A DNA stretch of 64,000 bases, from positions 82,967 to 146,966 of the IMG/VR virus record IMGVR_UViG_3300045988_099717; one strand, written 5' to 3'. This document shows, in pieces, positions 19,800 to 48,841 of the stretch (its first letter is position 1; the number at the start of each line of letters is the position of its first letter). The DNA comes from a virus. A program made the position numbers and the translations under genes. The notes beneath the pieces were generated by a model. The model searched no databases, was not told the DNA's origin, and saw nothing but the letters and a program-made list of their open reading frames with translations.

Positions 19800-21125
19800 T
19801 GGGATTTATGATTATTTAACCAACAAAACCACCATACTTTAGTAGGTGGATGAATTGGTTTGATTAATTTTGAATCAAAATTACAGATAAAAAAATGATT
19901 TCATACAAATACAACATCTATCATTCGAAGAAAACGAAGTATCTTGACAAGATGCTTCGTGAATGTTGTTTTGTATGGAATCATGCGTTAGCTCTACAAC
20001 GTAGGTATCACAAACTGTTTGGGAAATATATATCAATTGGTAAAATGAAGAAACATTTTACCAAAAGAATTAAAAGAAATCTTCTTCATTCCCAAACAAC
20101 ACAAGAAATACTTGAACGTCTTGATGAATCTTATAATCGTTTCTTTAAGAAGTTAGCTAAACGACCTCCTAAGTTTAAATCACCGGAGAAATTCAATTCT
20201 TTTGTATTCAAACAAGGTGGTTTTACCCTGAATGGTAATTGTTTAACAATTAACAAAGGAAAGAAACGATTTAGATTCTCATACAGTAGAGTCTACGAAG
20301 GTAATGTTAAACAAATTAGAATAGTTAGAGAAACGTGTTCCCGTTTTAGTTTGATTATAGTTACAGACTATAATCCTATAAACTCCTATAGAAAGACACA
20401 TGATGGTGCATCTATAGGATTGGATTTTGGCCTGAAAACTTATCTAACTAAAAGCGATGGTAGCAAAATCGATTCTCCATTATTCTTAAAACAATATCAA
20501 AACAAGATTAGAAAACTAAACAAACGGCTTTCTAATGCAAAGAAAGGATCCAACAATAGAAGAAGGAGATTGTTTGAACTCCAACAAACGTATCGTAAAA
20601 TAAACGATCTTCGATCGGATTTTCAATGGGGATTAGCACACCAGTTATGCAAACAGTATGATTATATTTTTATTGAAGATCTAAACATTGAAGGAATGAA
20701 ACGTTTGTGGGGAAAGAAAGTTTCTGATCTCAGTCATTCTTCTTTTATTGATAAGCTAATGTATGTTTCTTCAAAGTATGGAGTAACGATACACAAGATT
20801 GACAAATGGTATCCTTCTTCCAAAACTTGTGAATGTGGCTGCATTAATAAAGGACTGTCGTTACGCGACCGCACGTGGGTGTGCCCAGCGTGCGGAGCGA
20901 TTAACGACCGTGATGTTCTTGCAGCTAAAAATATTCTTCGGAAGGGCATTTCCGAATTGGAGAGCAAGAGTAATTCCAGCGATAGTAATATCGGGGTTTC
21001 TTGCGTTTGTATCCAAGAATCCCATTCGCTTTAGCGATGGGAGTATGTCAAACTGGTAATTGCATAATTTAATTGAACGTAAATCCAAAGGACCCCAGTG
21101 AATCCTTTTTTGACGTATATGATAG
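19800..21125 (+). mobile_element. Candidate IS200/IS605-family element carrying only tnpB (IS1341-like); boundaries approximate
   Basis: An intact TnpB ORF. A hairpin ccacc-N11-ggtgg lies upstream at about 19834-19854. A hairpin aaagga-N10-tccttt followed by TTTT lies downstream at about 21093-21118. The 3' flank could encode a guide (omega) RNA. Confidence 0.5.
19895..21034 (+). CDS. tnpB: TnpB (IS200/IS605 OrfB-type RuvC-like nuclease, RNA-guided family)
   Basis: The N-terminus YKYNIYHSKKTKYLDKMLRECCFVWNHALA is typical of TnpB. A RuvC-I-like D is present (GLDFGLK), an E in FIEDLN, a zinc finger CECGC...CPACG, and a C-terminal DRDVLAAKNI (RuvC-III). Confidence 0.85.
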   Translation: MISYKYNIYHSKKTKYLDKMLRECCFVWNHALALQRRYHKLFGKYISIGKMKKHFTKRIKRNLLHSQTTQEILERLDESYNRFFKKLAKRPPKFKSPEKFNSFVFKQGGFTLNGNCLTINKGKKRFRFSYSRVYEGNVKQIRIVRETCSRFSLIIVTDYNPINSYRKTHDGASIGLDFGLKTYLTKSDGSKIDSPLFLKQYQNKIRKLNKRLSNAKKGSNNRRRRLFELQQTYRKINDLRSDFQWGLAHQLCKQYDYIFIEDLNIEGMKRLWGKKVSDLSHSSFIDKLMYVSSKYGVTIHKIDKWYPSSKTCECGCINKGLSLRDRTWVCPACGAINDRDVLAAKNILRKGISELESKSNSSDSNIGVSCVCIQESHSL

Positions 21126-31940: not shown

Positions 31941-33138
31941 TCACAAAATATTTATTCTAACCGGATTAAACACAAATCCACTATCGATTATCTTTCCAAT
32001 GAAAGAATCACCGACTACTTTTCTTGCTATTCCTATAGCTCCATTAATATCAGCATTAATTAGCTTTCCAACGGAACTTTGGAATAATCCACGTTTCTTT
32101 CTTTTCCCTAAATAGGATTCTTGTTTCTTTAGAGGTTCAAAAGCAAGATGGTCAATCTTTGATGTGTAAGATTCCTCATGAGTAATTACCTCTATCCCTA
32201 AAAGATTTGCTTTGTAAACAATCTTATCAATCAATTTAGAATTTAGAATGAGGAATAGAAACAAAATGTTGGTTATTCCTTTTACCGATATTTATCTCGT
32301 TTTTCCATTCTTTGTTTAATCCAATGATGATTGTTCCTATATTGTTAGATTTACAAAAGTCTACAATGTATCTACTGATTTTATGCAATTTGTCTTCTAT
32401 CCAACAATTTCTAAACAAAGTAATTTTTCTTATTCTATTTGAAGTTCCCTTATTACCAACAAAAGACATCAACTTAGCTTTCTTCTTATTGTACCACTGA
32501 TTTACTGATTTCATAACCCGTCCGTTTATAATGAAAGAATTAGTTTCTACATTACTAATACATGAACATAAATTATTCAATCCTAAATCAATCGAAAGAA
32601 AATTGTCTTTGTTTAAACCAAGATCAGTTTCCTTTCTTTCATAAACTACCTCTACTACATAACATGTAGCTTGAGGGATTATTCTAACTTGTTTTAGTTC
32701 GTCTTTCTTTACATTTGTTTTGATAGGTTTGATTATATCTTTAACAAAATAAATACAATTATCACCCTTTACCCTACAATTGCAGTTGGTGAAAACAACC
32801 ATGTTTTGTTTCTTACCTTGTTTGTATGATGGAAGGTGAGGTCTATGATTTCCGTATTTAGAAGGATTCTTTTCAAAATCCTTCTTGAGTTTTATCCAGG
32901 ATTTTATGTTTTTAAATACCTGTTTAATCACCTGTTGGGATACATGATTAGGTAAATTCCTGAAATCGAATTGGTTTTCTTTGCAAAGTTTGTCTGATAA
33001 ATCAAATTCCTTTAAATAGTTACCTGAAAAGATTCCTTGACGAATGTTGTAAAGAACATAATTATATAACAAGCCGGATTTGAAGCAAATATCCTCAAAC
33101 CGGTTGTCTTTAACTATAGGCCTTTCAACTAATCTCAT
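31941..33138 (-). pseudogene. tnpB: Second TnpB-like gene, frameshifted (300-aa N-terminal ORF plus 107-aa C-terminal ORF in another frame), without a zinc finger
   Basis: The N-terminal ORF has a TnpB-like start and LSIDLGLNN (RuvC-I). The C-terminal ORF has HEESYTSKID (RuvC-II E) and NADINGAIGIARK (RuvC-III). The two frames overlap at 32236-32264. No CxxC pairs are present. Confidence 0.65.
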
Positions 33139-38404: not shown

Positions 38405-39424
38405 TCATCGATTTATCTTTTTAGACGGATCCCAATCTGAAGAGAAAGGGCATTCGTTTTTGTTATGTAATCCAAAGTCACAATAATAACACAGTGCCGA
38501 CGGGCAGGGTAGCTTGTTTTGCGAAACAGGCTGGCTTAGGGTGGCACGCCGCTTGCTATACCTGGCTCCTTCTGCTCCCTGGATGTATGCCTGAAATGTT
38601 TTTACACTATTATCTTCAAAATCATACATTTTAGACAAAGTGTCATTTAGCATCTCTATAGATTTTGTTTTACGTTCCTCATCCACCTTAACCTTTTGGT
38701 ATTGTCTGGTCCTGGTAAAGAAATAGATGTTCATATCTGGCAGAACTCCACCATATTTTCTATAGATGTAAAACGAATATATAGGATGCTGTAAATTCGT
38801 TTCCAACTTCTTAGAATCAAAAACCTTATTACCTGATTTCCAATCTATGACATAATGGTGAACTACGTTCTTGCTTTTTATAGCCAGATGAAGGTCTACC
38901 GATCCTACTATGTACACATGAGTATGAATTACTCCATTTATGTTAACAGGCTTAGGAAGACGGTACGGCAGCACAAAATCTTCTTCGACTCCAACTATAG
39001 CGCCGTGTCTGATAAGTTTCTCGCAGGGATTAAGATCACTATCAGCTATCATAAACCTATTGCCGTCTTTTTTGAACAGATCCACAATCCAAGCAAGAAG
39101 CTCTCCAGATTGCTTCATGGCTATCATCATATTTTCCGGTGATTGCCAAGGTATGTCTTCTTGGTAAGCATAGTAACTTATAGCTTCCCCCAGGTCTTTG
39201 CCAGAAGGCTGTCTTCCGTTCTTGAAGAAGTATTCCAGTGTCTTATGAATAACCGTACCATAAGACGTAGCTTCTTGTTTTTCCGTAGACCTTTTGCCCT
39301 CCACGTAAGTTTTATACCATTTCATTGGACAAGTAAGAAACGTATCTATCTGGGAATAAGATATGGCAAGACGTTTCACACCATTAAACTCCTTATATAG
39401 CAAATGCGTTTCCGGGACCATCAT
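38405..39424 (-). CDS. Cas4/RecB-family PD-(D/E)XK nuclease with an Fe-S cysteine cluster
   Basis: An N-terminal Cys (LTCPMKWY), a D..IDWKSG motif and three C-terminal Cys (CPSALCYYC...CPF). Confidence 0.6.
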   Translation of the reverse strand: MMVPETHLLYKEFNGVKRLAISYSQIDTFLTCPMKWYKTYVEGKRSTEKQEATSYGTVIHKTLEYFFKNGRQPSGKDLGEAISYYAYQEDIPWQSPENMMIAMKQSGELLAWIVDLFKKDGNRFMIADSDLNPCEKLIRHGAIVGVEEDFVLPYRLPKPVNINGVIHTHVYIVGSVDLHLAIKSKNVVHHYVIDWKSGNKVFDSKKLETNLQHPIYSFYIYRKYGGVLPDMNIYFFTRTRQYQKVKVDEERKTKSIEMLNDTLSKMYDFEDNSVKTFQAYIQGAEGARYSKRRATLSQPVSQNKLPCPSALCYYCDFGLHNKNECPFSSDWDPSKKINR

Positions 39425-39780
39425 AAGTCATTGTCTTTAAATCCTTCCGGGTAATATACGACATACTTCTTACCGTCTTCTGGTGTCATGGCAAACTGCA
39501 TGTAGTTATCACGATTACGATGCTTGCCATCCAATCCTCGTTTCCAATACAGGATACCGTCTATATCCACATAAGATCGGCCGCGGTCGGCTCTAACCAC
39601 GTCCGTGTGTAGCAGATACCCGTCGGAAGACACAATCCACACTTTATCCCCTTTGCTTAAATAAGATATTCTTTTTCTTACAACAACCCTTTTCTTATTA
39701 TCCAATACAAATTCCTCGTCAGTCATACTCTTCATCCTCCTCTTCTTCTGTTTCAAAATCAATTCCATAATACTGATCAT
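39421..39780 (-). CDS. Hypothetical protein
   Basis: 119-aa ORF. Confidence 0.45.
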   Translation of the reverse strand: MISIMELILKQKKRRMKSMTDEEFVLDNKKRVVVRKRISYLSKGDKVWIVSSDGYLLHTDVVRADRGRSYVDIDGILYWKRGLDGKHRNRDNYMQFAMTPEDGKKYVVYYPEGFKDNDL

Positions 39781-39933
39781 AATGCTTGGTCAGTTCTTCT
39801 GGTTCTAAATCTTGTCCAAAATCCATGTTAAAAATATCGTAATTAGTAAAGCACTGTTCCTGCCGGCAGGAAATCTATGAATGCTGCTTTTATTTCTTCA
39901 ATTAGGCCCAAGTGTAACCCTGGGCCATTGTAT

Positions 39934-41634
39934 TTATTTTTTGTCATCTCCTTTTAGCTTCTTTAAAGTATCTGCAATCGGAAGCTGATCAATGACTCCC
40001 AATGCCGGAGCGACGGTCTTAACAACATTGTTAAGGAAATTACCGGTACTGTTCTGACCGCCGTCAAATACCGTGATATTTCCGAGGTTAATGTGCTCAA
40101 ATGCCTTAACCTGTTCTCCAGCAATTTCTTTCCACTGATTAACCATCTTGTACTGGATGGCTATCTGAGGATTGGATTCTGCTGCTTCCACCATAGCCTT
40201 AAATCCCTCTGCTTCTGCCATCAACGACTTTTTCTTACCTTCGGCTTCTGCTTCCAACTTCATCTTAATAGCCTTTGCTTCGGCTTCTGCTTTTGCCAAA
40301 TTGGCTGCTGCTTCAGCGGCAGCCCGGCGTTTAATCTTTTCTGCTTCAGCATCAGCTTGCAAAATAGCTTCTTGCTTCTGGATTTCAGCCGGCACAATCT
40401 TTTCAGCTCGAAGCGCAGCTTGAACTTTCTCAGCCTTAGCCTCTTCCACTTCTTTATCAGCAAGCTCTTTTGCCGTTTTCACAGCCGCTTCCGATTTAAC
40501 CCTCTCTTCTCCAGCCTTCTTTTCTGATTGAGCTTTGATAACCTGTAATTCTGATTCTGATATAGCAACCTCTTTCTGGGCATTGTTATAACCCACAGAT
40601 GCGTTTTTCTCAGCTTCAGCTTTCTTGATCTGAGCTTCGGAATCTTGGATTGCTATAGCTGCTTGTTTATCAGCCTCAGCCTTATTCTTTCCGACTTCTT
40701 CCATTCTTTCAGCCTCAGCTTTGTTTACCTCAAGTTCTGCCTTAGATCTTGCGATCGCTGATTCCTTATCAGCCAAAGTCTTTGCAATAACCGCAGCCCT
40801 ATCTCTATCGGCTTGAGCTACACCGATCTGTTTTTCTTTATCGGTTAAAGCCAAAGCTACTTCTTTTTCTTTCTTTGTTTCAGCTACTACCGTTTCCTTT
40901 TCTTTTTCAGTATAGGCAATTTGAATCTCTTGCTCTTTTTGGGTATTAGCTACAGCCGTTTCTTTTTCCTTTTGCTGTACAGCAATCTTAATAGCACCCA
41001 GCTTTTCCTGTTCTTCGATATTAGCCTGTGCTTCGTTCAGGGCCTTACTTTCAGCTTCTTTGCCAAGATTCATGATATAGCCGGCTTCGTCTCTGATGTC
41101 ACTGATGTTGATATTTAGGAGGTAAAGGCCTAACTTATTAAGTTCGTTATCAATGTTTTTTCTTGCCTTATCCAAAAACTCATCCCTGTCAGAATTAAGT
41201 TTTTCAATCGTCATTTCAGCAATGATCAAACGCATTTGGCCATAAACGATATCCGTAATAAGATTTTCAGTAGATTCAGTATCCATCCCCAAAAGCCTTT
41301 CTGCTGCATTCTGCATAATTTCAGGATTTGTGCTGATTGCTACTGTAATAGTAGTAGGTACATCCACTCTGATATTTTGAGACGACAAAGCACCGGTGAG
41401 CCTACAATCTATTTGCATAGGCTCCATAGACAAAATATCATAGCTTTGAATAATAGGCAAGACGAATGCCGCTCCACCATGATATAATTTCGCCGATTTC
41501 TTTTCCCCACCTGTCTTACCATAAACGACCAAGACTTGATTAGGTTTACATCTACGATACCTTGATAAGACTCCGATGATTGTCAAAATAATCACTACAG
41601 CTAAAATAGCTGACACGTACATGATTGTTGTCAT
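39934..41634 (-). CDS. SPFH/band-7 (flotillin/YqiK-like) membrane protein
   Basis: An N-terminal transmembrane helix, an SPFH core (YRRCKPNQVLVVYGK...IRVDVPTTITVAIS...) and a long A/E/K-rich coiled-coil tail made of EAEK-type repeats. Confidence 0.8.
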   Translation of the reverse strand: MTTIMYVSAILAVVIILTIIGVLSRYRRCKPNQVLVVYGKTGGEKKSAKLYHGGAAFVLPIIQSYDILSMEPMQIDCRLTGALSSQNIRVDVPTTITVAISTNPEIMQNAAERLLGMDTESTENLITDIVYGQMRLIIAEMTIEKLNSDRDEFLDKARKNIDNELNKLGLYLLNINISDIRDEAGYIMNLGKEAESKALNEAQANIEEQEKLGAIKIAVQQKEKETAVANTQKEQEIQIAYTEKEKETVVAETKKEKEVALALTDKEKQIGVAQADRDRAAVIAKTLADKESAIARSKAELEVNKAEAERMEEVGKNKAEADKQAAIAIQDSEAQIKKAEAEKNASVGYNNAQKEVAISESELQVIKAQSEKKAGEERVKSEAAVKTAKELADKEVEEAKAEKVQAALRAEKIVPAEIQKQEAILQADAEAEKIKRRAAAEAAANLAKAEAEAKAIKMKLEAEAEGKKKSLMAEAEGFKAMVEAAESNPQIAIQYKMVNQWKEIAGEQVKAFEHINLGNITVFDGGQNSTGNFLNNVVKTVAPALGVIDQLPIADTLKKLKGDDKK

Positions 41635-41665
41635 AACTTTTAAAATTTAATTGTTGATAAAAAAA

Positions 41666-42160
41666 TTAGATACTTAATTCTCCTTCTTCGTATTTTATAT
41701 TCACCTTGTCACCGTTTTTGTAATTTTTTCCAGACAAGCATCTTACTCTCATTTGCTCCTGTCTTCCATTTTTCGAAATATTTACCATATAATGATTCTT
41801 CCCTAATCTAAACACTATCTCCACCTCTCTGCCATTTAAATCTTCCGGACATTCGTACACCATTTCTTGCTTTAACTTAAGAAGTAACTTATATACGTAA
41901 AACAAAACGATAAAGAAAAACGACCCTATCACAACCCCTACTAAATGGGAACCCGAAAAGTAGGTAGTCCAGCTATATCCAAGAATAAAATGTGTTATGC
42001 CCTTGAATGATATGATGTCCGACAAAGACATACTTAAATCAGAAGCATCATCAATATCAATATCCGTATCCAGATCAGATCCTAATATCGACAACAAAAA
42101 CTGTATAACAAAAGCAAATGACGCTATTAAAGCCATGCATAAAATTATGTCACTTCCCAT
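41666..42160 (-). CDS. NfeD-like membrane protein, partner of the SPFH protein
   Basis: Hydrophobic transmembrane segments followed by a C-terminal beta-rich OB-like region (GREVEIVFRLGKNHYMVNI...GDKVNIKYEEGELSI). It lies immediately upstream of the band-7 gene, as in yqiJK and nfeD-floA pairs. Confidence 0.55.
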   Translation of the reverse strand: MGSDIILCMALIASFAFVIQFLLSILGSDLDTDIDIDDASDLSMSLSDIISFKGITHFILGYSWTTYFSGSHLVGVVIGSFFFIVLFYVYKLLLKLKQEMVYECPEDLNGREVEIVFRLGKNHYMVNISKNGRQEQMRVRCLSGKNYKNGDKVNIKYEEGELSI

Positions 42161-42398
42161 ATCCTTCTGTTATTATTTTGTAAACAAGATCAGTCATATC
42201 TTTGATGGTCTCCATATCATAATCAATAATAATATTGAATTTTTGTTCCACCATCATTTCCAGTTCAATTTGATCAATAGAATCTAATCCAAGTTCTTTA
42301 AACGTCACATCTTCTTCATGAACTATATCTATTTCCGAATTAAGAAACTGAGTAATAATTATATCCTCTATTATCTTTCTGATTCTTACTTTTTCCAT
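42150..42398 (-). CDS. Acyl carrier protein (ACP)
   Basis: 82 aa. FKELGLDSIDQIELEMMVEQKF matches the ACP helix-II phosphopantetheine site [20 protein letters not shown], including the conserved Ser. The overall alignment to E. coli AcpP also holds (KII...EEV...SF..DLG.DS.D.VEL.M..E..F.I). Confidence 0.7.
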   Translation of the reverse strand: MEKVRIRKIIEDIIITQFLNSEIDIVHEEDVTFKELGLDSIDQIELEMMVEQKFNIIIDYDMETIKDMTDLVYKIITEGYGK

Positions 42399-43099
42399 TG
42401 CTTTCTAATTTTGTTAAATAAATACGTTTTTATGTTTTTCAATCGCTCTTTGTCTGTTTCAGAACTTCCGGTAAACAAATAATCCGGATTGCCTTTAGCT
42501 GGCGGCGTAGGCAATTTAGATACGGCAAACAACCAATCCATTTCCTTATTCTTCTTAGACTCCAAATAAGGCTCGGTAGCGATCTTAAATTTTTCAGCTA
42601 TTAAGTCAAAGAGCTTTGAATTTTTAAGGTTCATATGGACTGAAAAAGCCTGAGAAGGTGGTTTCCATATGAAGTTGCATAAGCTCATTGTATAATCTCC
42701 TGACTCTGCTATATAAGATTCCGTTACCTGAAGTATGATCTCTTTCTTGAATGAGGTGTTACCCATAAACCAACACAATCTGGATTCCGCTTCTTTTCTA
42801 CTGACACCTATGTCTTTTGAATATGATTCGTACATTCCTATCATAATCTTCAACGTTTCCAGAACCTCGTCTGTCATCTCTGGTGTCTCTATATAATTCA
42901 CAAAAGACGTTCCTTTGTTGGTTAATCTCATCACACCTGATTTTAATTTCTCAACCAGGCCAAGTTCTATATATCTACCAGCATCTTCTTCCGGCATGGC
43001 TTCGATCATAACCGAATCCTTCTGTCTTATGGCAAGAAGATTGGCAAGATCATTAGGAGTCATGTCTGATGCTGCAAGTTGTCTGAAATTGATGTACAT
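42386..43099 (-). CDS. Hypothetical protein
   Basis: 237-aa ORF. No motif recognised. Confidence 0.5.
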   Translation of the reverse strand: MYINFRQLAASDMTPNDLANLLAIRQKDSVMIEAMPEEDAGRYIELGLVEKLKSGVMRLTNKGTSFVNYIETPEMTDEVLETLKIMIGMYESYSKDIGVSRKEAESRLCWFMGNTSFKKEIILQVTESYIAESGDYTMSLCNFIWKPPSQAFSVHMNLKNSKLFDLIAEKFKIATEPYLESKKNKEMDWLFAVSKLPTPPAKGNPDYLFTGSSETDKERLKNIKTYLFNKIRKQWKK

Positions 43100-43101
43100 T
43101 T

Positions 43102-43299
43102 TTAATCAGCTTTAATAAAAATAACATTCTTGTTATCTTGTCTATCAACATGTCCACATGGACCAACAATTATGTCTATACATGAACAAGAATCGTAATC
43201 TTCGAATATACACCTATCGCATGTATCACCTTCCACACATTTTAATCTTACAATTCCGGCAGTAAATACTTCTCCTACTTTAAATTCCTTCTTTTCCAT
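43102..43299 (-). CDS. Small Cys-rich protein
   Basis: 65-aa ORF containing CDRC, CSC and C..H. Confidence 0.35.
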   Translation of the reverse strand: MEKKEFKVGEVFTAGIVRLKCVEGDTCDRCIFEDYDSCSCIDIIVGPCGHVDRQDNKNVIFIKAD

Positions 43300-43314: not shown

Positions 43315-43917
43315 TTAACTGTTGTACCCTTCTTTAATAATCGAATTTCTACCGGTAGATACCGACTGTCGAAGATCGTCATGTACAGAATCTACCGTAG
43401 AATACTTGTTTCTGGTTGTAAAAATCACTTCCAGCATCTCCTTGTAATCACCTAAAGCTACTTCGTATCTCGGATCTACTTTGGCTTTTCTTTCGGCCTC
43501 GGCATTACTTTTAGCCAGTTCTCGATCAAGAAGGTCTTCTTTGATTCGGTCAGCAATCATATCAAGCTCTTTTTTGATTACTTCGCCGGCTGCCCGAAGT
43601 TGACCTTCTACGTCACCAAGCTGATCTTGGACGGTACCTATTTCTTTCTTTAGACGATCGTATTCGTTAATCATACCCATATCACCTGCATAGCCGGAAA
43701 AGTCCTTGATTATTCTGGTTCCTTCTTTAAGGAGCTCAATGACTCGTCTTTTACGTTCTCTGCTTATTAAAGACGGAAGACGATAATTCATATCCGCCAC
43801 CGCCTTATCATGTATGGAGTTGATTAAAAACATCTCTCTTTCATCCCCTGCAAATTCAGTAAGAACCAAAAGGAACTTACTTATCAGGTATTCGTTTTCT
43901 TCTACTGTTAGTCTCAT
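43315..43917 (-). CDS. Hypothetical coiled-coil protein
   Basis: 200-aa ORF. Confidence 0.5.
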   Translation of the reverse strand: MRLTVEENEYLISKFLLVLTEFAGDEREMFLINSIHDKAVADMNYRLPSLISRERKRRVIELLKEGTRIIKDFSGYAGDMGMINEYDRLKKEIGTVQDQLGDVEGQLRAAGEVIKKELDMIADRIKEDLLDRELAKSNAEAERKAKVDPRYEVALGDYKEMLEVIFTTRNKYSTVDSVHDDLRQSVSTGRNSIIKEGYNS

Positions 43918-43932
43918 GGTTCTTATTTTTTT

Positions 43933-45066
43933 TTAATATACTGACTGTTCTTCCTTTACCTCTTGTTCTTGATCTTGATTGTTCGTAACGTCTTCCACAG
44001 TATAGAGCTTGGGCGGCGTCGGCGGCTGGTTGGGGTTCACGAACTTCGTCCCTCCCTCCCCGTACATCCATCCATGCCCCGGCAAGATCTCTGGGTGGAT
44101 TGTATTAGTAAGCTCTTCCATACTAACTTGCCTTACCTTCAGTATATGATGAAACACCAGTCCGGCTGTCCTGAATGATGTTTTGTTTTCAGTTTTAAAC
44201 CGGTCAAGAGTCTGATACCAATCTTTCCCAAATATCATATACTTATCCAGCCCGTACCTACGAGGATTGTGCAAGCCTATCATTAACGTACATAGTTGCC
44301 CCAGCGTATCAGATTGGTAAAAATCAGAAAGACGCGGAGGCTGCTCTTGTGGGCTTTTTATCCTTCCTTCTATCTCTCTGTTGAATTGGGATATGATGAG
44401 GAAAAATATGTTTTTATATACTAATTTAGCTTCGTTCATAACCGCCACCAAATCATCTATAGCCGACTTAGGATCTAATCCCATTCTTTTTATCAAAGCA
44501 ATATGATCGACTTTAAATATTATAAGACGTTTGTCTTTGTGTTTGGTAGCTATATGATACACAGCCGCCTCAAACTCTTTTACCGTACACGGAGCATCGA
44601 TGTATATTATATTATTCCTGATTTCACCTTGAAGGATTTCAAACATCCTCATCTCTTCTACTGTATTAGAATCTTGCCTTCTTAATATTTCAGGAGCCCG
44701 CTTTTTCATATCCTGGCTCATTCTGCGAAGAAGAAGATCTTGAGGATTCATTTCGAACTCGCAATTAACAAGAAAATAATCTTCTGCTTGCGGGTTGATC
44801 ATCGGATTCATCACATTTTCCAATATCTTTTGGGCCACATACGATTTACCTACAGATGGCCGGGCTCCTATGGCAATAGCGTGCTGAGGAAAAATACCTC
44901 CAAGCAAAGCCTCATCAATATAATCGTATCCGGTTTTAGCGGGGATAAGCTCTCCCCGCCTGTATTTCAAGATATTCTCATACGCCTCCTCCATAACCTG
45001 TTTAGAGGTCTTGAATATCCTTCTTATATCTATCTTATTTGCTATCTCCTCGTGCATTTTTGTCAC
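43933..45066 (-). CDS. DnaB-family replicative helicase (RecA-like C-terminal domain)
   Basis: Walker A GARPSVGKSY, plus FLVNCEFEM, IDAPCTV and LIISQFNREIEGR (the DnaB H3/H4 motifs). Confidence 0.8.
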   Translation of the reverse strand: MTKMHEEIANKIDIRRIFKTSKQVMEEAYENILKYRRGELIPAKTGYDYIDEALLGGIFPQHAIAIGARPSVGKSYVAQKILENVMNPMINPQAEDYFLVNCEFEMNPQDLLLRRMSQDMKKRAPEILRRQDSNTVEEMRMFEILQGEIRNNIIYIDAPCTVKEFEAAVYHIATKHKDKRLIIFKVDHIALIKRMGLDPKSAIDDLVAVMNEAKLVYKNIFFLIISQFNREIEGRIKSPQEQPPRLSDFYQSDTLGQLCTLMIGLHNPRRYGLDKYMIFGKDWYQTLDRFKTENKTSFRTAGLVFHHILKVRQVSMEELTNTIHPEILPGHGWMYGEGGTKFVNPNQPPTPPKLYTVEDVTNNQDQEQEVKEEQSVY

Positions 45067-45362: not shown

Positions 45363-45929
45363 CTATTTCAATCTGCCGTAACTCATATCAGGATCACACC
45401 AGACATACCCGTCTTTCTCATCATGAAGATACTCAGGGCATCCTCTGCATGCGCTACTGCCTGACACTATTTGGTTGTTCTTATTAGGGCACTTATCTCC
45501 AGGCTTATGCCATTCTATTCTCGAACCTGATCGTTCTTTGTTTACATGACAGAACTGAAAGACTTTTCCCATCGTCTTCTCGCCGAACATACCTATATGT
45601 GTGTATTCTTCCGGTATAGATAGAAATTCGGATAAATCTTTATACATCCTTTCCCGTTCCTCCGGCGTAGACCATAGTCTATCAAGTTCGGCATGGACTC
45701 TTATCTTAAGAGACCTCAGTGATGGCCCCGCAAGCCGGCCTTTAGCTTTTCCCTTATTCGGCCCTGATTCATGAACACCGACATAAGCATTGCATGGTTT
45801 ACACATCATAACCATCCCTAAGCCTTTTCTGCTATATATTTTATCGGCATTGACCAACTCGGTTTCTCTTCCGCAATAAGGGCAAATTTCGCCTCTTAAA
45901 ATCCGTTGTTGCCGCACATTGAGTTCCAT
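45363..45929 (-). CDS. Cys-rich zinc-ribbon protein
   Basis: CPYCG...CKPCN at the N-terminus and CRGCPEY at the C-terminus. Confidence 0.5.
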   Translation of the reverse strand: MELNVRQQRILRGEICPYCGRETELVNADKIYSRKGLGMVMMCKPCNAYVGVHESGPNKGKAKGRLAGPSLRSLKIRVHAELDRLWSTPEERERMYKDLSEFLSIPEEYTHIGMFGEKTMGKVFQFCHVNKERSGSRIEWHKPGDKCPNKNNQIVSGSSACRGCPEYLHDEKDGYVWCDPDMSYGRLK

Positions 45930-46174
45930 ACTCTATCCTTTTGTTTCTCTTTAAACTTTTCATACAAACTGCTTTCAGTTTCCATTTCTGAGATCTCTAC
46001 CTCTACGTCCTCTCTTTTGAAAATTACTTTCTTGGCTGTCGGATACGCGCATTTAGAGATACGAATAGCATTACGAATAGCGTAAACAAAATACGTTTCT
46101 GGTGACGATTCGATCACCACTACCTCGTTTAAAGTGTTTTTATAATTTTCCATGTTGTTATCTACTTGCTTCAA
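45896..46174 (-). CDS. Hypothetical protein
   Basis: 92-aa ORF. Confidence 0.4.
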   Translation of the reverse strand: MKQVDNNMENYKNTLNEVVVIESSPETYFVYAIRNAIRISKCAYPTAKKVIFKREDVEVEISEMETESSLYEKFKEKQKDRVWNSMCGNNGF

Positions 46175-46511
46175 TTACACACCCTGGATTATCTTCACAT
46201 GCCTCTTTGTATTCGATAAGAAACTTAAGAAATGAATCATAAGACCCCCATCCGTTTTCTGGTTCGTATCTCAAAAGACTCTTTCTCTTGGAGATCATAA
46301 TATATATACCTTTTGTGAGTATCTTCACCATCTCCTTAGTATCTATTTCCCTGCCCAATTCTTCCGGTCTCCAAACATAATCGTATAGTGTTTCTTTGTT
46401 TTCTGATACGAATATTTTTTGTGCCATCTTGTTCATGTTGTGGGTGATGTTTGCAACCCATTTACGATCCTCTTCTTTCTTCTTGCTCTTAATATAAACG
46501 TCCAGGCTCAT
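46158..46511 (-). CDS. Hypothetical protein
   Basis: 117-aa ORF. Confidence 0.45.
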   Translation of the reverse strand: MSLDVYIKSKKKEEDRKWVANITHNMNKMAQKIFVSENKETLYDYVWRPEELGREIDTKEMVKILTKGIYIMISKRKSLLRYEPENGWGSYDSFLKFLIEYKEACEDNPGCVIEASR

Positions 46512-47502
46512 AATATTTCTCTTTTACTTTGTTACTAATTATCAAATCTGCCACATCATCTCCATCTCCTACATTTTCAACATTTTGAAGATAGTCCGAT
46601 ACTTTTATCCTTGATCTCATCATCATCCCATCTATCTTTTTACTCCATGTCTCAAATGCTTGTCCTTTGTCCGGAAAAGCTACGGTCTTTCTATCTTTTA
46701 AAACATCTATCACTTCCGGCCTTAGATTCTGCAACCCACCGGTAGCTACAAATAACTCATCTGGTTTATTCACAGCGCATATAATAGCCGTCTTTTCTGA
46801 TTCCACCAAATTAACCACCTTATCCGGATACTGGCTTAGAAGATGTTCTCCGAACAGGCATTGTCTAAACAAGAAGTCTCTTGCATGCAACGAGTGATAA
46901 AACATGACATGAGGCCGCTCATTGTCACCGTCTTTTTCTTTCACTCTTTTTACATCAATCTCATTCCCCTGGCTGTCGGTCTTTATATAAAAGTCCATGA
47001 TCTTGCCGGTTCTACATACAAAATCTTTGTCTATCTGCCAGAATATACAACACCCTTTCCATCCCCATAAGTCCATTGTTCCGACATGATACCTCCTGAA
47101 TACATCAGATACCCTTTCTTTTCCCCATAGAGACGATAAAAATCTAAATACGGTGTTTCTGTCGTCTGGAACCACAGTCCTCTCAAACTCGCTAAAAGGT
47201 ATGTAATTTACAACGTCAGGATTTACAGGAGGACGATAAGCTCTTATACACTTGTTTCCCGAAATCCAAAGATCTTTGTCACCTACATCCTTACCAGTAG
47301 GTCGTTTATCATAACCGCAAGTCCGTTCATGATCGCATCTTCCAAACTCGTTTCCAACAACCTGACCTGTTGCCACATCAATATAAGGGGTGAGGCACCG
47401 GCTTTTCCCGCAAGCGGGGCAGGTTAGCTTCAGTCGGCTCCTGCCAGGTCTGCGGTCAAGTTGAAACCGGGGTACGTTTTCGTATCTTCTGAAATCAAGC
47501 AT
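46489..47502 (-). CDS. DNA primase (zinc finger plus Toprim)
   Basis: Zinc finger CPACGKSRC...CDHERTCG. Toprim motifs VNLVESEKTAIICA, VATGG, AFPDKGQ and GDGDDVADL. Confidence 0.7.
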   Translation of the reverse strand: MLDFRRYENVPRFQLDRRPGRSRLKLTCPACGKSRCLTPYIDVATGQVVGNEFGRCDHERTCGYDKRPTGKDVGDKDLWISGNKCIRAYRPPVNPDVVNYIPFSEFERTVVPDDRNTVFRFLSSLWGKERVSDVFRRYHVGTMDLWGWKGCCIFWQIDKDFVCRTGKIMDFYIKTDSQGNEIDVKRVKEKDGDNERPHVMFYHSLHARDFLFRQCLFGEHLLSQYPDKVVNLVESEKTAIICAVNKPDELFVATGGLQNLRPEVIDVLKDRKTVAFPDKGQAFETWSKKIDGMMMRSRIKVSDYLQNVENVGDGDDVADLIISNKVKEKYYEPGRLY

Positions 47503-47512
47503 TTTTAATTCC

Positions 47513-48841
47513 TCATATTATAAATCTTTTAGACATTTCCTCTGCAATATCATACACGACCGTATGATCCTCTTCATTGTACGGCTTATTGATATTCAGC
47601 ACTCCTTTTCTCACTTTGAACTTCTTATCTTTTCTAAGGTGATTCAACATACCTTGTTGGAACACGCAGTCCGCCTTTTCAAGTGCTATACTGTCTTCTG
47701 TCCATTCTTTCAACGTATATCCTTTGCTGCTCGTGCTTTTTGGAGAAAAGTTCATAATACGTGCATCAATCCCATACCATGCTTTAACCATTCTTCTTTC
47801 AGCTTCTAATTGAAATGCGTATGATTCCCATATTCCCCCTGATTTAAAGTCGAGAATAACCACTTCTTCCTTCTCCACGTCTCTTACCTCCTTCTTCGGA
47901 TCACCTTTTTTGAACTGTCCGGTAGCCCTTTGATATACGGCTCCAAAATAACCTTCTTCTTTGTATTTGAATGTCATTTTAACCATCGCATCAATAGGTG
48001 TTGCTACAAGGTAATCCTCTAAAGAAAGGATTCTTTCTATCATCATCGGTTTCACCTTGTAATCAGAACAGAATTTGGCAAACTTCATGACCCTGACAAT
48101 CATATCGTCAAGATCATCTATGCTATTAAAGAACCGATCAAGATTTTTCTTAGATATCTTCAGCTTGCCTTCTTGCACTGTCTTAACTACAAAGCTTCTA
48201 TTTAAGACCATATCTCTACCTGTTAGGTACAATCCGTATAAGTAGTGCATGATCGTTCCCTTATCGGCTTCATACTGCGCTACCTCTTCTGGATTGCGAC
48301 CAAGCATCTTCATCTCTTGCTTCCATTCCTGAAGTGCCGTCTTATCATCTACATACCCATCTTTGATTAAAGTTGTTACCGAAGCATATATCTTAGCCGT
48401 CCCATCATCCATCTTTCTTACATAAAAACGATTATCGTCTAATGTCAATCTTACGAATTTGGGTGTCTCAATCTTCTTCAACTCATCACAGATATAAAAC
48501 GGCTCTAACGTTTCCTGGTTTTCTGTAAACGGATTCGAGTCTTCTTCTCCAGGGTTAGGAGCGGCTTCCTCCGCCGGAGCTTCCGGTTCCTCCTTCTGGG
48601 CCTGCTCTGGCTCAGAAGCCGGCTCTTCAACTACTGGAACCTGTCCGCCTCTTTCTGCTATGTCTCTGTTCTTTATTAAAGACATAGCTTCCTTTTTTAA
48701 TTGCTCCGGTGTTTGATTAGGATCTGATACTGACATCACAACATCGTTCATTCTAAACAACGTATTTCCTTCTCCTTCCACCATAGGTACAAACCCTAAA
48801 TCTATTAATATTTTAATCTTTTCTTCTATCATATCTATCAA
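47513..48841 (-). CDS. Protein with an acidic disordered N-terminal linker and a C-terminal RecB/Cas4-like PD-(D/E)XK nuclease motif
   Basis: IDAMVKM is followed by VVILDFKSGG (a D-x-K core) and then Y..QLEAERRM. A P/E/A-rich linker lies near residues 60-110. Confidence 0.45.
   Translation of the reverse strand: MIDMIEEKIKILIDLGFVPMVEGEGNTLFRMNDVVMSVSDPNQTPEQLKKEAMSLIKNRDIAERGGQVPVVEEPASEPEQAQKEEPEAPAEEAAPNPGEEDSNPFTENQETLEPFYICDELKKIETPKFVRLTLDDNRFYVRKMDDGTAKIYASVTTLIKDGYVDDKTALQEWKQEMKMLGRNPEEVAQYEADKGTIMHYLYGLYLTGRDMVLNRSFVVKTVQEGKLKISKKNLDRFFNSIDDLDDMIVRVMKFAKFCSDYKVKPMMIERILSLEDYLVATPIDAMVKMTFKYKEEGYFGAVYQRATGQFKKGDPKKEVRDVEKEEVVILDFKSGGIWESYAFQLEAERRMVKAWYGIDARIMNFSPKSTSSKGYTLKEWTEDSIALEKADCVFQQGMLNHLRKDKKFKVRKGVLNINKPYNEEDHTVVYDIAEEMSKRFII

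Follow-up and report, generated by a model that had tools for sequence, protein, structure and literature searches.

A flotillin and its NfeD-like partner, apparently derived from Bacteroidales, form an accessory cassette in the replication region of an abundant human-gut phage

We analysed a 64,000-nucleotide stretch of the IMG/VR virus record IMGVR_UViG_3300045988_099717 (positions 82,967 to 146,966 of that record; hereafter the window), in which four consecutive minus-strand genes encode a 237-residue protein, an 82-residue acyl carrier protein (ACP), a 164-residue membrane protein and a 566-residue flotillin (Table 1). A preliminary description, made from the sequence without database searches, had proposed that the last three of these could together modify or mimic membrane and lipid processes of the host; its coordinates and strand for the genes were identical to those in the list of open reading frames (ORFs). 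The 237-residue and ACP genes share 13 nucleotides and the ACP and 164-residue genes 11, and a 31-nucleotide A/T-rich spacer lies between the 164-residue gene and the flotillin gene. All four genes belong to a long co-directional minus-strand block that starts near 30 kb, at a sign change of the GC skew, and that also encodes a primase-like protein and a superfamily 2 (SF2) helicase. The replication-module setting proposed earlier was borne out, with a DnaB-like helicase upstream of the four genes and a PD-(D/E)XK nuclease and the SF2 helicase downstream. A scan for sigma-70 promoters and intrinsic terminators, whose models do not cover Bacteroidales-type promoters, gave counts no higher than those in shuffled sequence, and for this reason no operon boundaries are claimed.

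The source of the window is a very abundant tailed phage of the human gut with a genome of about 150 kb. Over 3.8 kb the locus shares 94.3% identity with the closest complete genome, phage csAssE-Sib (GenBank: OR575929), a 151-kb human-gut Caudoviricetes genome whose record gives no host and whose structural genes bear crAss-type names (ring and muzzle proteins). The csAssE-Sib record already labels the three genes 'flotillin family protein', 'transmembrane protein' and 'acyl carrier protein'. Relatives of the flotillin were encoded in at least 165 IMG/VR stretches, the best 80 of which showed 96-100% amino-acid identity.

The 566-residue protein is a flotillin, as first described. It consists of a hydrophobic N-terminal anchor (residues 5-24, MYVSAILAVVIILTIIGVLS, read off the sequence), an SPFH/Band_7 domain, an EA-rich coiled coil and a C-terminal Flot domain. 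Both domains exceeded their Pfam cut-offs, Band_7 (PF01145) over residues 30-211 with 90 bits against 23.6 (E 2.5e-25) and Flot (PF15975) over residues 450-559 with 39.3 bits against 27 (E 7.9e-10), and the protein aligned over its full length, coiled coil included, with E. coli YqiK (25% identity, E 2e-19). The closest solved relatives of its SPFH domain are the human flotillin-1/2 cage chains 9bq2/9l3g (E 2.6e-23). The NCBIfam FloT equivalog NF058507 was matched with 147.6 bits, far under its cut-off of 700, so the protein is a flotillin but not an orthologue of FloT. Phage and host flotillins share a Cys beside the membrane anchor, within an RYR[RK]CK pattern.

The 164-residue protein, whose gene adjoins the flotillin gene directly upstream, had been described as NfeD-like. 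Profile searches gave no match to Pfam (NfeD and YqiJ included), NCBIfam or PHROG even at E ≤ 10 and nothing in PADLOC, and small-profile comparisons with PDB sequences and, by hhalign, with E. coli YqiJ were not significant. The Pfam models NfeD (PF01957) and YqiJ_N/YqiJ_OB (PF21001/PF07290) also missed the Bacteroidales homologues of the protein, while E. coli YqiJ, used as a positive control, matched both YqiJ models. An exhaustive HMMER search delimited a family of 434 representatives (50% clustering), nearly all of them 155-185 residues long, and only two of 80 distant relatives reached Pfam NfeD (best 6e-5). The AlphaFold2 model (pLDDT 74) predicted three transmembrane helices at residues 2-25, 52-69 and 72-101, a disordered acidic loop with a D-x-D motif and a six-stranded C-terminal OB barrel (barrel pLDDT 83-88). 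When a profile of the 80 relatives was compared with the PDB, the best non-transmembrane match was YuaF (E 0.05), over the barrel, and BFVD contained a full-length viral homologue with 34% identity under the name 'NfeD-like C-terminal domain-containing protein'. Because no hidden Markov model (HMM) matched, the NfeD-likeness rests on structure and context: the predicted helices and barrel and the position of the gene agree with the earlier assignment, and the NfeD HMM search proposed to confirm it failed. Accordingly, we describe the protein as short-NfeD/YqiJ-like by predicted fold, architecture and position only and do not assign it to Pfam NfeD or YqiJ. In NCBI and UniRef its Bacteroidales homologues are named only 'hypothetical' or 'transmembrane protein' (examples in Table 1), and the protein upstream of Bacteroidales flotillins thus seems to represent an overlooked family of NfeD-like OB-fold partners that has no Pfam model.

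Flotillin relatives were then sought in one genome per prokaryotic species, which gave 228; the counts for host loci refer to the best 80. All of these 80 are from Bacteroidales (Bacteroides, Phocaeicola, Parabacteroides, Prevotella, Leyella and Xylanibacter, and also Tannerellaceae) and share 62-66% identity with the phage flotillin. A homologue of the partner, with about 40% identity by tblastn, lies directly upstream of the flotillin gene in 79 of the 80 loci. The genes around this operon vary between genera, indicating that it is chromosomal and not carried by a shared prophage. In a neighbour-joining tree the phage flotillins, from the window and from a second phage lineage (L083), formed one clade that branched with those of Bacteroidales at about the depth of the Phocaeicola vulgatus branch, with E. 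coli YqiK (24% identity) and the flotillin of Vibrio phage KIT04 (32%) remote from it. Compared with the B. thetaiotaomicron flotillin, the SPFH domain is 80% identical, the Flot domain 76% and the coiled coil, which is about 33 residues longer in the phage protein, 57%. The second lineage has retained the pair, with 83% identity in the flotillin and 60% in the partner. The Bacteroidales operon, in which a transmembrane protein of 165-177 residues precedes the flotillin (for example in B. thetaiotaomicron and P. vulgatus), is the closest match to the phage pair and has the same order, spacing and architecture; the phage cassette differs in having diverged and in lying within a replication module beside an ACP gene. 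The simplest reading is that the two-gene operon was captured from a Bacteroidales host, and, given the 66% identity of the flotillin, this reading predicts a Bacteroidales host for the phage. A set of distant partner and flotillin loci lacking an ACP gene (L085-L088) was considered as belonging to further phages and rejected because of their bacterial look; in L088 the gene type downstream is shared with the B. thetaiotaomicron locus.

The cassette is under purifying selection. Ratios of nonsynonymous to synonymous polymorphism (pN/pS), calculated as pooled pairwise values against the window allele, were 0.055 for the flotillin and 0.10 for the partner, compared with 0.067 for DnaB, 0.056 for the nuclease and 0.038 for the 237-residue gene. 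These low values, similar to those of DnaB and the nuclease, indicate that the captured genes are maintained by selection, and nearly all contigs that carry the flotillin gene have an intact reading frame.

The flotillin is nevertheless dispensable to the phage. To estimate how often it is present, we used 74 contigs of the species picked via the 237-residue gene, a sample that is hence unbiased for flotillin. The full interval was found in 53 contigs, and an intact flotillin was missing from 21 (about 28%), of which 20 had no flotillin gene and one lacked the partner together with flotillin residues 1-444. The common deletion has its junction at 41663|39832, at an ATTTTT microhomology, and brings the partner stop codon within a few bases of the ATG of a 35-codon ORF. 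Other junctions were 41640|39834 in L227, which keeps 23 nucleotides of the spacer between partner and flotillin, and 42139|40302 in L219, and the deletions generally fall at short A/T microhomologies. The distinct junctions indicate that the absence of flotillin is due to deletion, more than once, and is not the ancestral state. Flotillin-less genomes were scattered on the tree of flanking genes, where the 18 deletions among 68 genomes required 14 parsimony changes, and were as diverse as flotillin-carrying ones. Seventeen flotillin-less genomes were examined; all of them keep the ACP gene and 16 a full-length partner, which is truncated at residue 125 in the other. This retention hints that the partner may also work with the host flotillin. 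The 35-codon ORF, one of two small ORFs just downstream of the flotillin gene, is very acidic (MDFGQDLEPEEL...EEEEDEEYD); where the flotillin gene is deleted, it abuts the partner gene. The other, of 34 codons, overlaps the flotillin stop codon, and csAssE-Sib has a 50-residue gene annotated at the equivalent position.

The ACP gene belongs to a different association. In every context that we read, the 237-residue gene follows the DnaB-like helicase gene and precedes the nuclease and helicase genes, and the slot between it and the nuclease is variable in content. In the window species and in L083 and L084 the slot holds the ACP, partner and flotillin genes; in L169 and L173-L176 it holds an ACP-like gene, a DNA methylase gene and two radical-SAM genes; and in L170-L172 it holds unrelated small genes. 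The PD-(D/E)XK nuclease is conserved in the sister phages despite this other cargo. Three phage lineages, including one that lacks the flotillin pair altogether, have an ACP-like gene directly after the 237-residue gene and overlapping it. Conversely, no homologue of the phage ACP was found within 5 kb of the flotillin operon in the 80 host loci. Among 37 ACP-bearing viral contigs, 33 were unrelated to the phage and had no flotillin, partner or 237-residue homologue nearby; the remaining four belong to the sister lineage and contain the 237-residue gene without flotillin or partner. The ACP is a separate and older resident at the edge of the slot, tied to the winged-helix protein described below and standing outside the flotillin cassette. 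The suggestion that the three genes act together was not supported, as the host operons contain no ACP gene, the phage ACP tracks the 237-residue gene and is kept when the flotillin has been lost, the motif Ser gives way to Asp in the sister lineage (a loss that the preliminary description had itself listed as refuting), and the 237-residue neighbour is a winged-helix protein.

The 237-residue protein combines an N-terminal MarR-like winged helix with an all-alpha C-terminal domain, and its family comprises 49 clusters with 35-98% identity, all of about 235 residues and lacking a Pfam domain. We considered it as a phosphopantetheinyl transferase (PPTase) or acyltransferase acting on the ACP, a role for which the preliminary description had named it as the alternative to a host enzyme, and rejected this candidate, since the only signal was that of the winged helix. 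FabT is a MarR-type regulator whose ligand is acyl-ACP. It scored no better against the 237-residue protein than dozens of other MarR proteins did, and the C-terminal 150 residues of the phage protein have no counterpart in FabT. Most likely, the ACP, translationally coupled to the 237-residue gene, works with this DNA-binding protein or with host enzymes.

The identity of the ACP and its intact Ser in the window, both claimed at the outset, were confirmed. The protein matched PP-binding (PF00550) with 27.9 bits against the Pfam cut-off of 20.8 and the PHROG family 'acyl carrier protein' (phrog_5934) at 1.6e-8, and 49 ACPs in the PDB were matched at E ≤ 0.01, with the phage Ser aligned to the Ser of DSLD. 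All NCBIfam ACP equivalog cut-offs were missed (best 29.7 against 71), which marks it as a divergent ACP. Its motif is GLDSID, and within the species the Ser is constant while neighbouring positions vary, as GLDS[I/V/L]D[Q/R]. Since the best 120 homologue matches are near-identical alleles, conservation of the Ser was judged from neighbour-based sampling and a scan of viral sequences. The Ser was kept in 133 of 133 full-length copies (43 alleles), in L083 and in the 17 flotillin-less genomes; three of the 136 flotillin-carrying copies gave no regular-expression match to the motif. In the sister lineage without the flotillin pair, by contrast, all five positional orthologues read GFDDLD, with Asp in place of the phosphopantetheine Ser. 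These are 47-100% identical among themselves and 33-37% identical to the window ACP and still score above the PP-binding cut-off. Among homologues the picture is mixed, with the Ser in all readable copies of the species and in L083 and Asp in the sister lineage. In the viral scan, 29 of 37 phage ACPs had the Ser, and LGFDDLD also occurred in one unrelated contig (L277). The Asp variants suggest that the carrier-protein fold may be used without its prosthetic group and might reflect a phosphopantetheine-independent binding of the winged-helix protein by the ACP. Neither the csAssE-Sib annotation nor a Pfam scan of 40 other ORFs of the window revealed a PPTase, acyltransferase, acyl-ACP synthetase or Fab gene, in agreement with the earlier remark that no PPTase or acyltransferase lies nearby. 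Any phosphopantetheinylation of the ACP would then require the host AcpS. The only gene of the block less constrained than the ACP (pN/pS 0.44) is a small Cys-rich ORF.

Table 1. Positions of the genes and other features discussed, in window coordinates unless another sequence is named.
Feature	Position	Strand	Size	Evidence or setting
237-residue gene	42386-43099	minus	237 aa	ORF list
ACP gene	42150-42398	minus	82 aa	ORF list
Flotillin partner gene	41666-42160	minus	164 aa	ORF list
Flotillin gene	39934-41634	minus	566 aa	ORF list
Presence/absence interval	39833-41662			flotillin gene and short flanks
DnaB-like replicative helicase	43933-45066	minus		DnaB_C 8.9e-17 (Pfam), phrog_37407 2.6e-40; upstream edge, conserved replication block
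PD-(D/E)XK exonuclease	38405-39424	minus		PDDEXK_1 1.2e-20 (Pfam), phrog_69 8.7e-24; downstream edge, variable slot
Acidic ORF	39719-39826	minus	35 codons	abuts partner gene in deletion variants
ORF at flotillin stop codon	39843-39947	minus	34 codons	overlaps flotillin stop codon
GFDDLD ACP-like gene	L169:5675-5938			sister lineage
GFDDLD ACP-like gene	L173:4563-4826			sister lineage
GFDDLD ACP-like genes	L174-L176 (same loci as L256-L259)			sister lineage
Bacteroidales partner homologue	L110:4471-4968			
Bacteroidales partner homologue	L148:4430-4963			
Cys-rich ORF	43102-43299	minus	65 aa	pN/pS about 1.7
Coiled-coil protein	43315-43917	minus	200 aa	pN/pS 0.003
TnpB / IS605 OrfB-type gene	19895-21034	plus	379 aa	phrog_506 9.5e-90
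TnpB-like ORF	32236-33138	minus	300 aa	2.6e-24
TnpB gene in L083	13497-14288			
Diversity-generating retroelement	csAssE-Sib (OR575929) 45751-47816			beside putative tail-fibre gene

Several further features were recorded in the window and its relatives. Between the 237-residue gene and the DnaB-like helicase gene, the Cys-rich ORF either evolves fast or is no real gene, and the coiled-coil protein is the most conserved gene of the block. A TnpB / IS605 OrfB-type gene and a second, shorter TnpB-like ORF occur in the window, two TnpB genes are annotated in csAssE-Sib and another is present in the relative L083. A Tad2-like (Thoeris anti-defence 2) Pfam domain was matched at 7.1e-11 in one of the 40 window ORFs scanned, and the same scan gave AAA_21/SMC_N, YqaJ, DUF1351, WDGH and two DUF4494 matches; on this basis the early region has candidate counter-defence genes. 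csAssE-Sib also contains a diversity-generating retroelement (variable and template repeats, an initiation-of-mutagenic-homing site and a reverse transcriptase), which, judged by coordinate offset, falls outside the window.

Taken together, these results make it likely that the phage carries a host-derived accessory cassette of a flotillin and an NfeD-like partner that supports the membrane during replication, with the ACP separate from it. The pair would be co-expressed with the early or middle replication genes. With its hydrophobic N-terminal segment the flotillin would be anchored to the inner membrane on the cytoplasmic side. Its coiled-coil and Flot domains would mediate oligomerisation into an SPFH cage, on which the OB domain of the partner may dock as in host systems of the yuaF-floT and yqiJ-yqiK type. 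Such a phage scaffold could supplement or replace the host flotillin scaffold in infection, and its most likely purpose would be to maintain membrane order and integrity (fluidity, proton-motive force and membrane-bound machinery) while the phage replicates. Because the flotillin gene has been lost repeatedly in nature, the benefit appears to be conditional on the host or on conditions.

An alternative close to the preliminary description is that ACP, NfeD-like protein and flotillin form one module, in which an ACP primed by the host supplies acyl groups for lipid remodelling or acylation within a flotillin microdomain. The three genes are indeed contiguous, co-directional and partly overlapping, their order is kept in L083, and the ACP retains its Ser in the flotillin-carrying species and has lost it in the sister lineage without flotillin. 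Eukaryotic flotillins are S-acylated, and the Cys that phage and host proteins share at the anchor side would fit such a role. However, no ACP gene lies near any of the 80 host operons, the coupling of the ACP to the 237-residue gene exists with or without flotillin, and natural flotillin-less variants retain the ACP. An acyltransferase, a PPTase, an acyl-ACP synthetase and Fab genes are all missing from the window ORFs scanned and from the csAssE-Sib annotation, and selection on the ACP is much weaker than on the flotillin (pN/pS 0.44 versus 0.055). We therefore regard one three-gene module as quite unlikely, and a lipid or membrane module of this composition is the least supported proposal. 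It is highly unlikely that the cassette is passenger DNA, recently acquired, with no role in the phage and now being lost. The recurrent clean deletions in about 28% of contigs would agree with it, but the purifying selection equals that on DnaB and the nuclease, and nearly every contig with the gene has an intact frame. In addition, the divergence from all host copies (66% and 40% identity for flotillin and partner) and the retention of both in a second lineage (83% and 60%) indicate long residence under constraint.

The flotillin pair could instead serve competition or defence, either in superinfection exclusion or by buffering the membrane against abortive-infection effectors that depolarise or perforate it. 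Its presence and absence are scattered over genetic backgrounds, as is typical of conditionally useful arms-race genes, and it occupies a hyper-variable accessory slot in which sister phages hold DNA methylase and radical-SAM genes, in an early region with other counter-defence-type domains such as the Tad2-like one. SPFH proteins act alongside the PspA membrane-stress response (PMC8581546), which also speaks for this explanation. On the other side, PADLOC gave no match, we know of no precedent for a flotillin pair in such a module, and with 80% identity to the host in the SPFH domain the phage protein probably does biochemically what its host counterpart does. We consider a role in competition or defence rather unlikely. 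Unlikely, too, is the combined proposal that the flotillin cage and its co-diverged partner are a counter-defence or competition device while the ACP, separately, is a phosphopantetheine-independent ligand of the winged-helix protein. If the cassette were such a device, the Bacteroidales inner membrane would be stabilised or re-partitioned so that membrane-targeting abortive-infection effectors or the entry of superinfecting DNA fail, and a benefit that depends on the host strain would sustain the presence/absence polymorphism.

Besides the Bacteroidales operon, the yuaF(nfeD2)-floT(yuaG) operon of B. subtilis and the yqiJ-yqiK operon of E. coli resemble the phage pair in architecture. Unlike in those systems, the phage partner matches no NfeD or YqiJ model, and the flotillin stays under the FloT cut-off and shares only 24-25% identity with YqiK. 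Flotillin genes are very rare in phages: matches were obtained in only nine of 50,697 GenBank phage records, mostly short contigs, and the only genuine-looking phage genomes among the nine were csAssE-Sib, Vibrio phage KIT04 and one 121-kb faecal contig. KIT04, a T5-like lytic phage, likewise has a flotillin-family gene annotated in its genome (KIT04_048); its product, however, is about 30% identical, no NfeD-like partner is annotated upstream, and both the phage family and the host are unrelated. Stand-alone ACPs are common in jumbo and other phages, where they have no assigned function (PMC13573597). Those of PHROG 5934 are, like the window ACP, small and acidic, with a DS[LI]D motif and no phage PPTase, whereas the window ACP is set apart by its coupling to a winged-helix protein of the replication module and by the sister-lineage orthologues with Asp for Ser. 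Within the library searched, there was no publication on a phage flotillin/SPFH/NfeD pair, on flotillin in crAss-like phages or on csAssE-Sib, and the subject of the one flotillin-rich phage paper is prophage integration into the host floA gene.

The ACP of this locus also carries a caution, namely that adjacency within a phage variable slot is not evidence for shared function. Of further, secondary interest are the ACP variants with Asp for Ser, which are coupled to a winged-helix protein. For Bacteroidales, a description as an NfeD-like OB-fold partner is now available for the widespread 'hypothetical transmembrane protein' whose gene precedes that of flotillin. For the phage, the coexistence of flotillin-plus and flotillin-minus variants in a very frequently assembled gut virus amounts to a natural knockout series, which could address the role of bacterial flotillins in infection.

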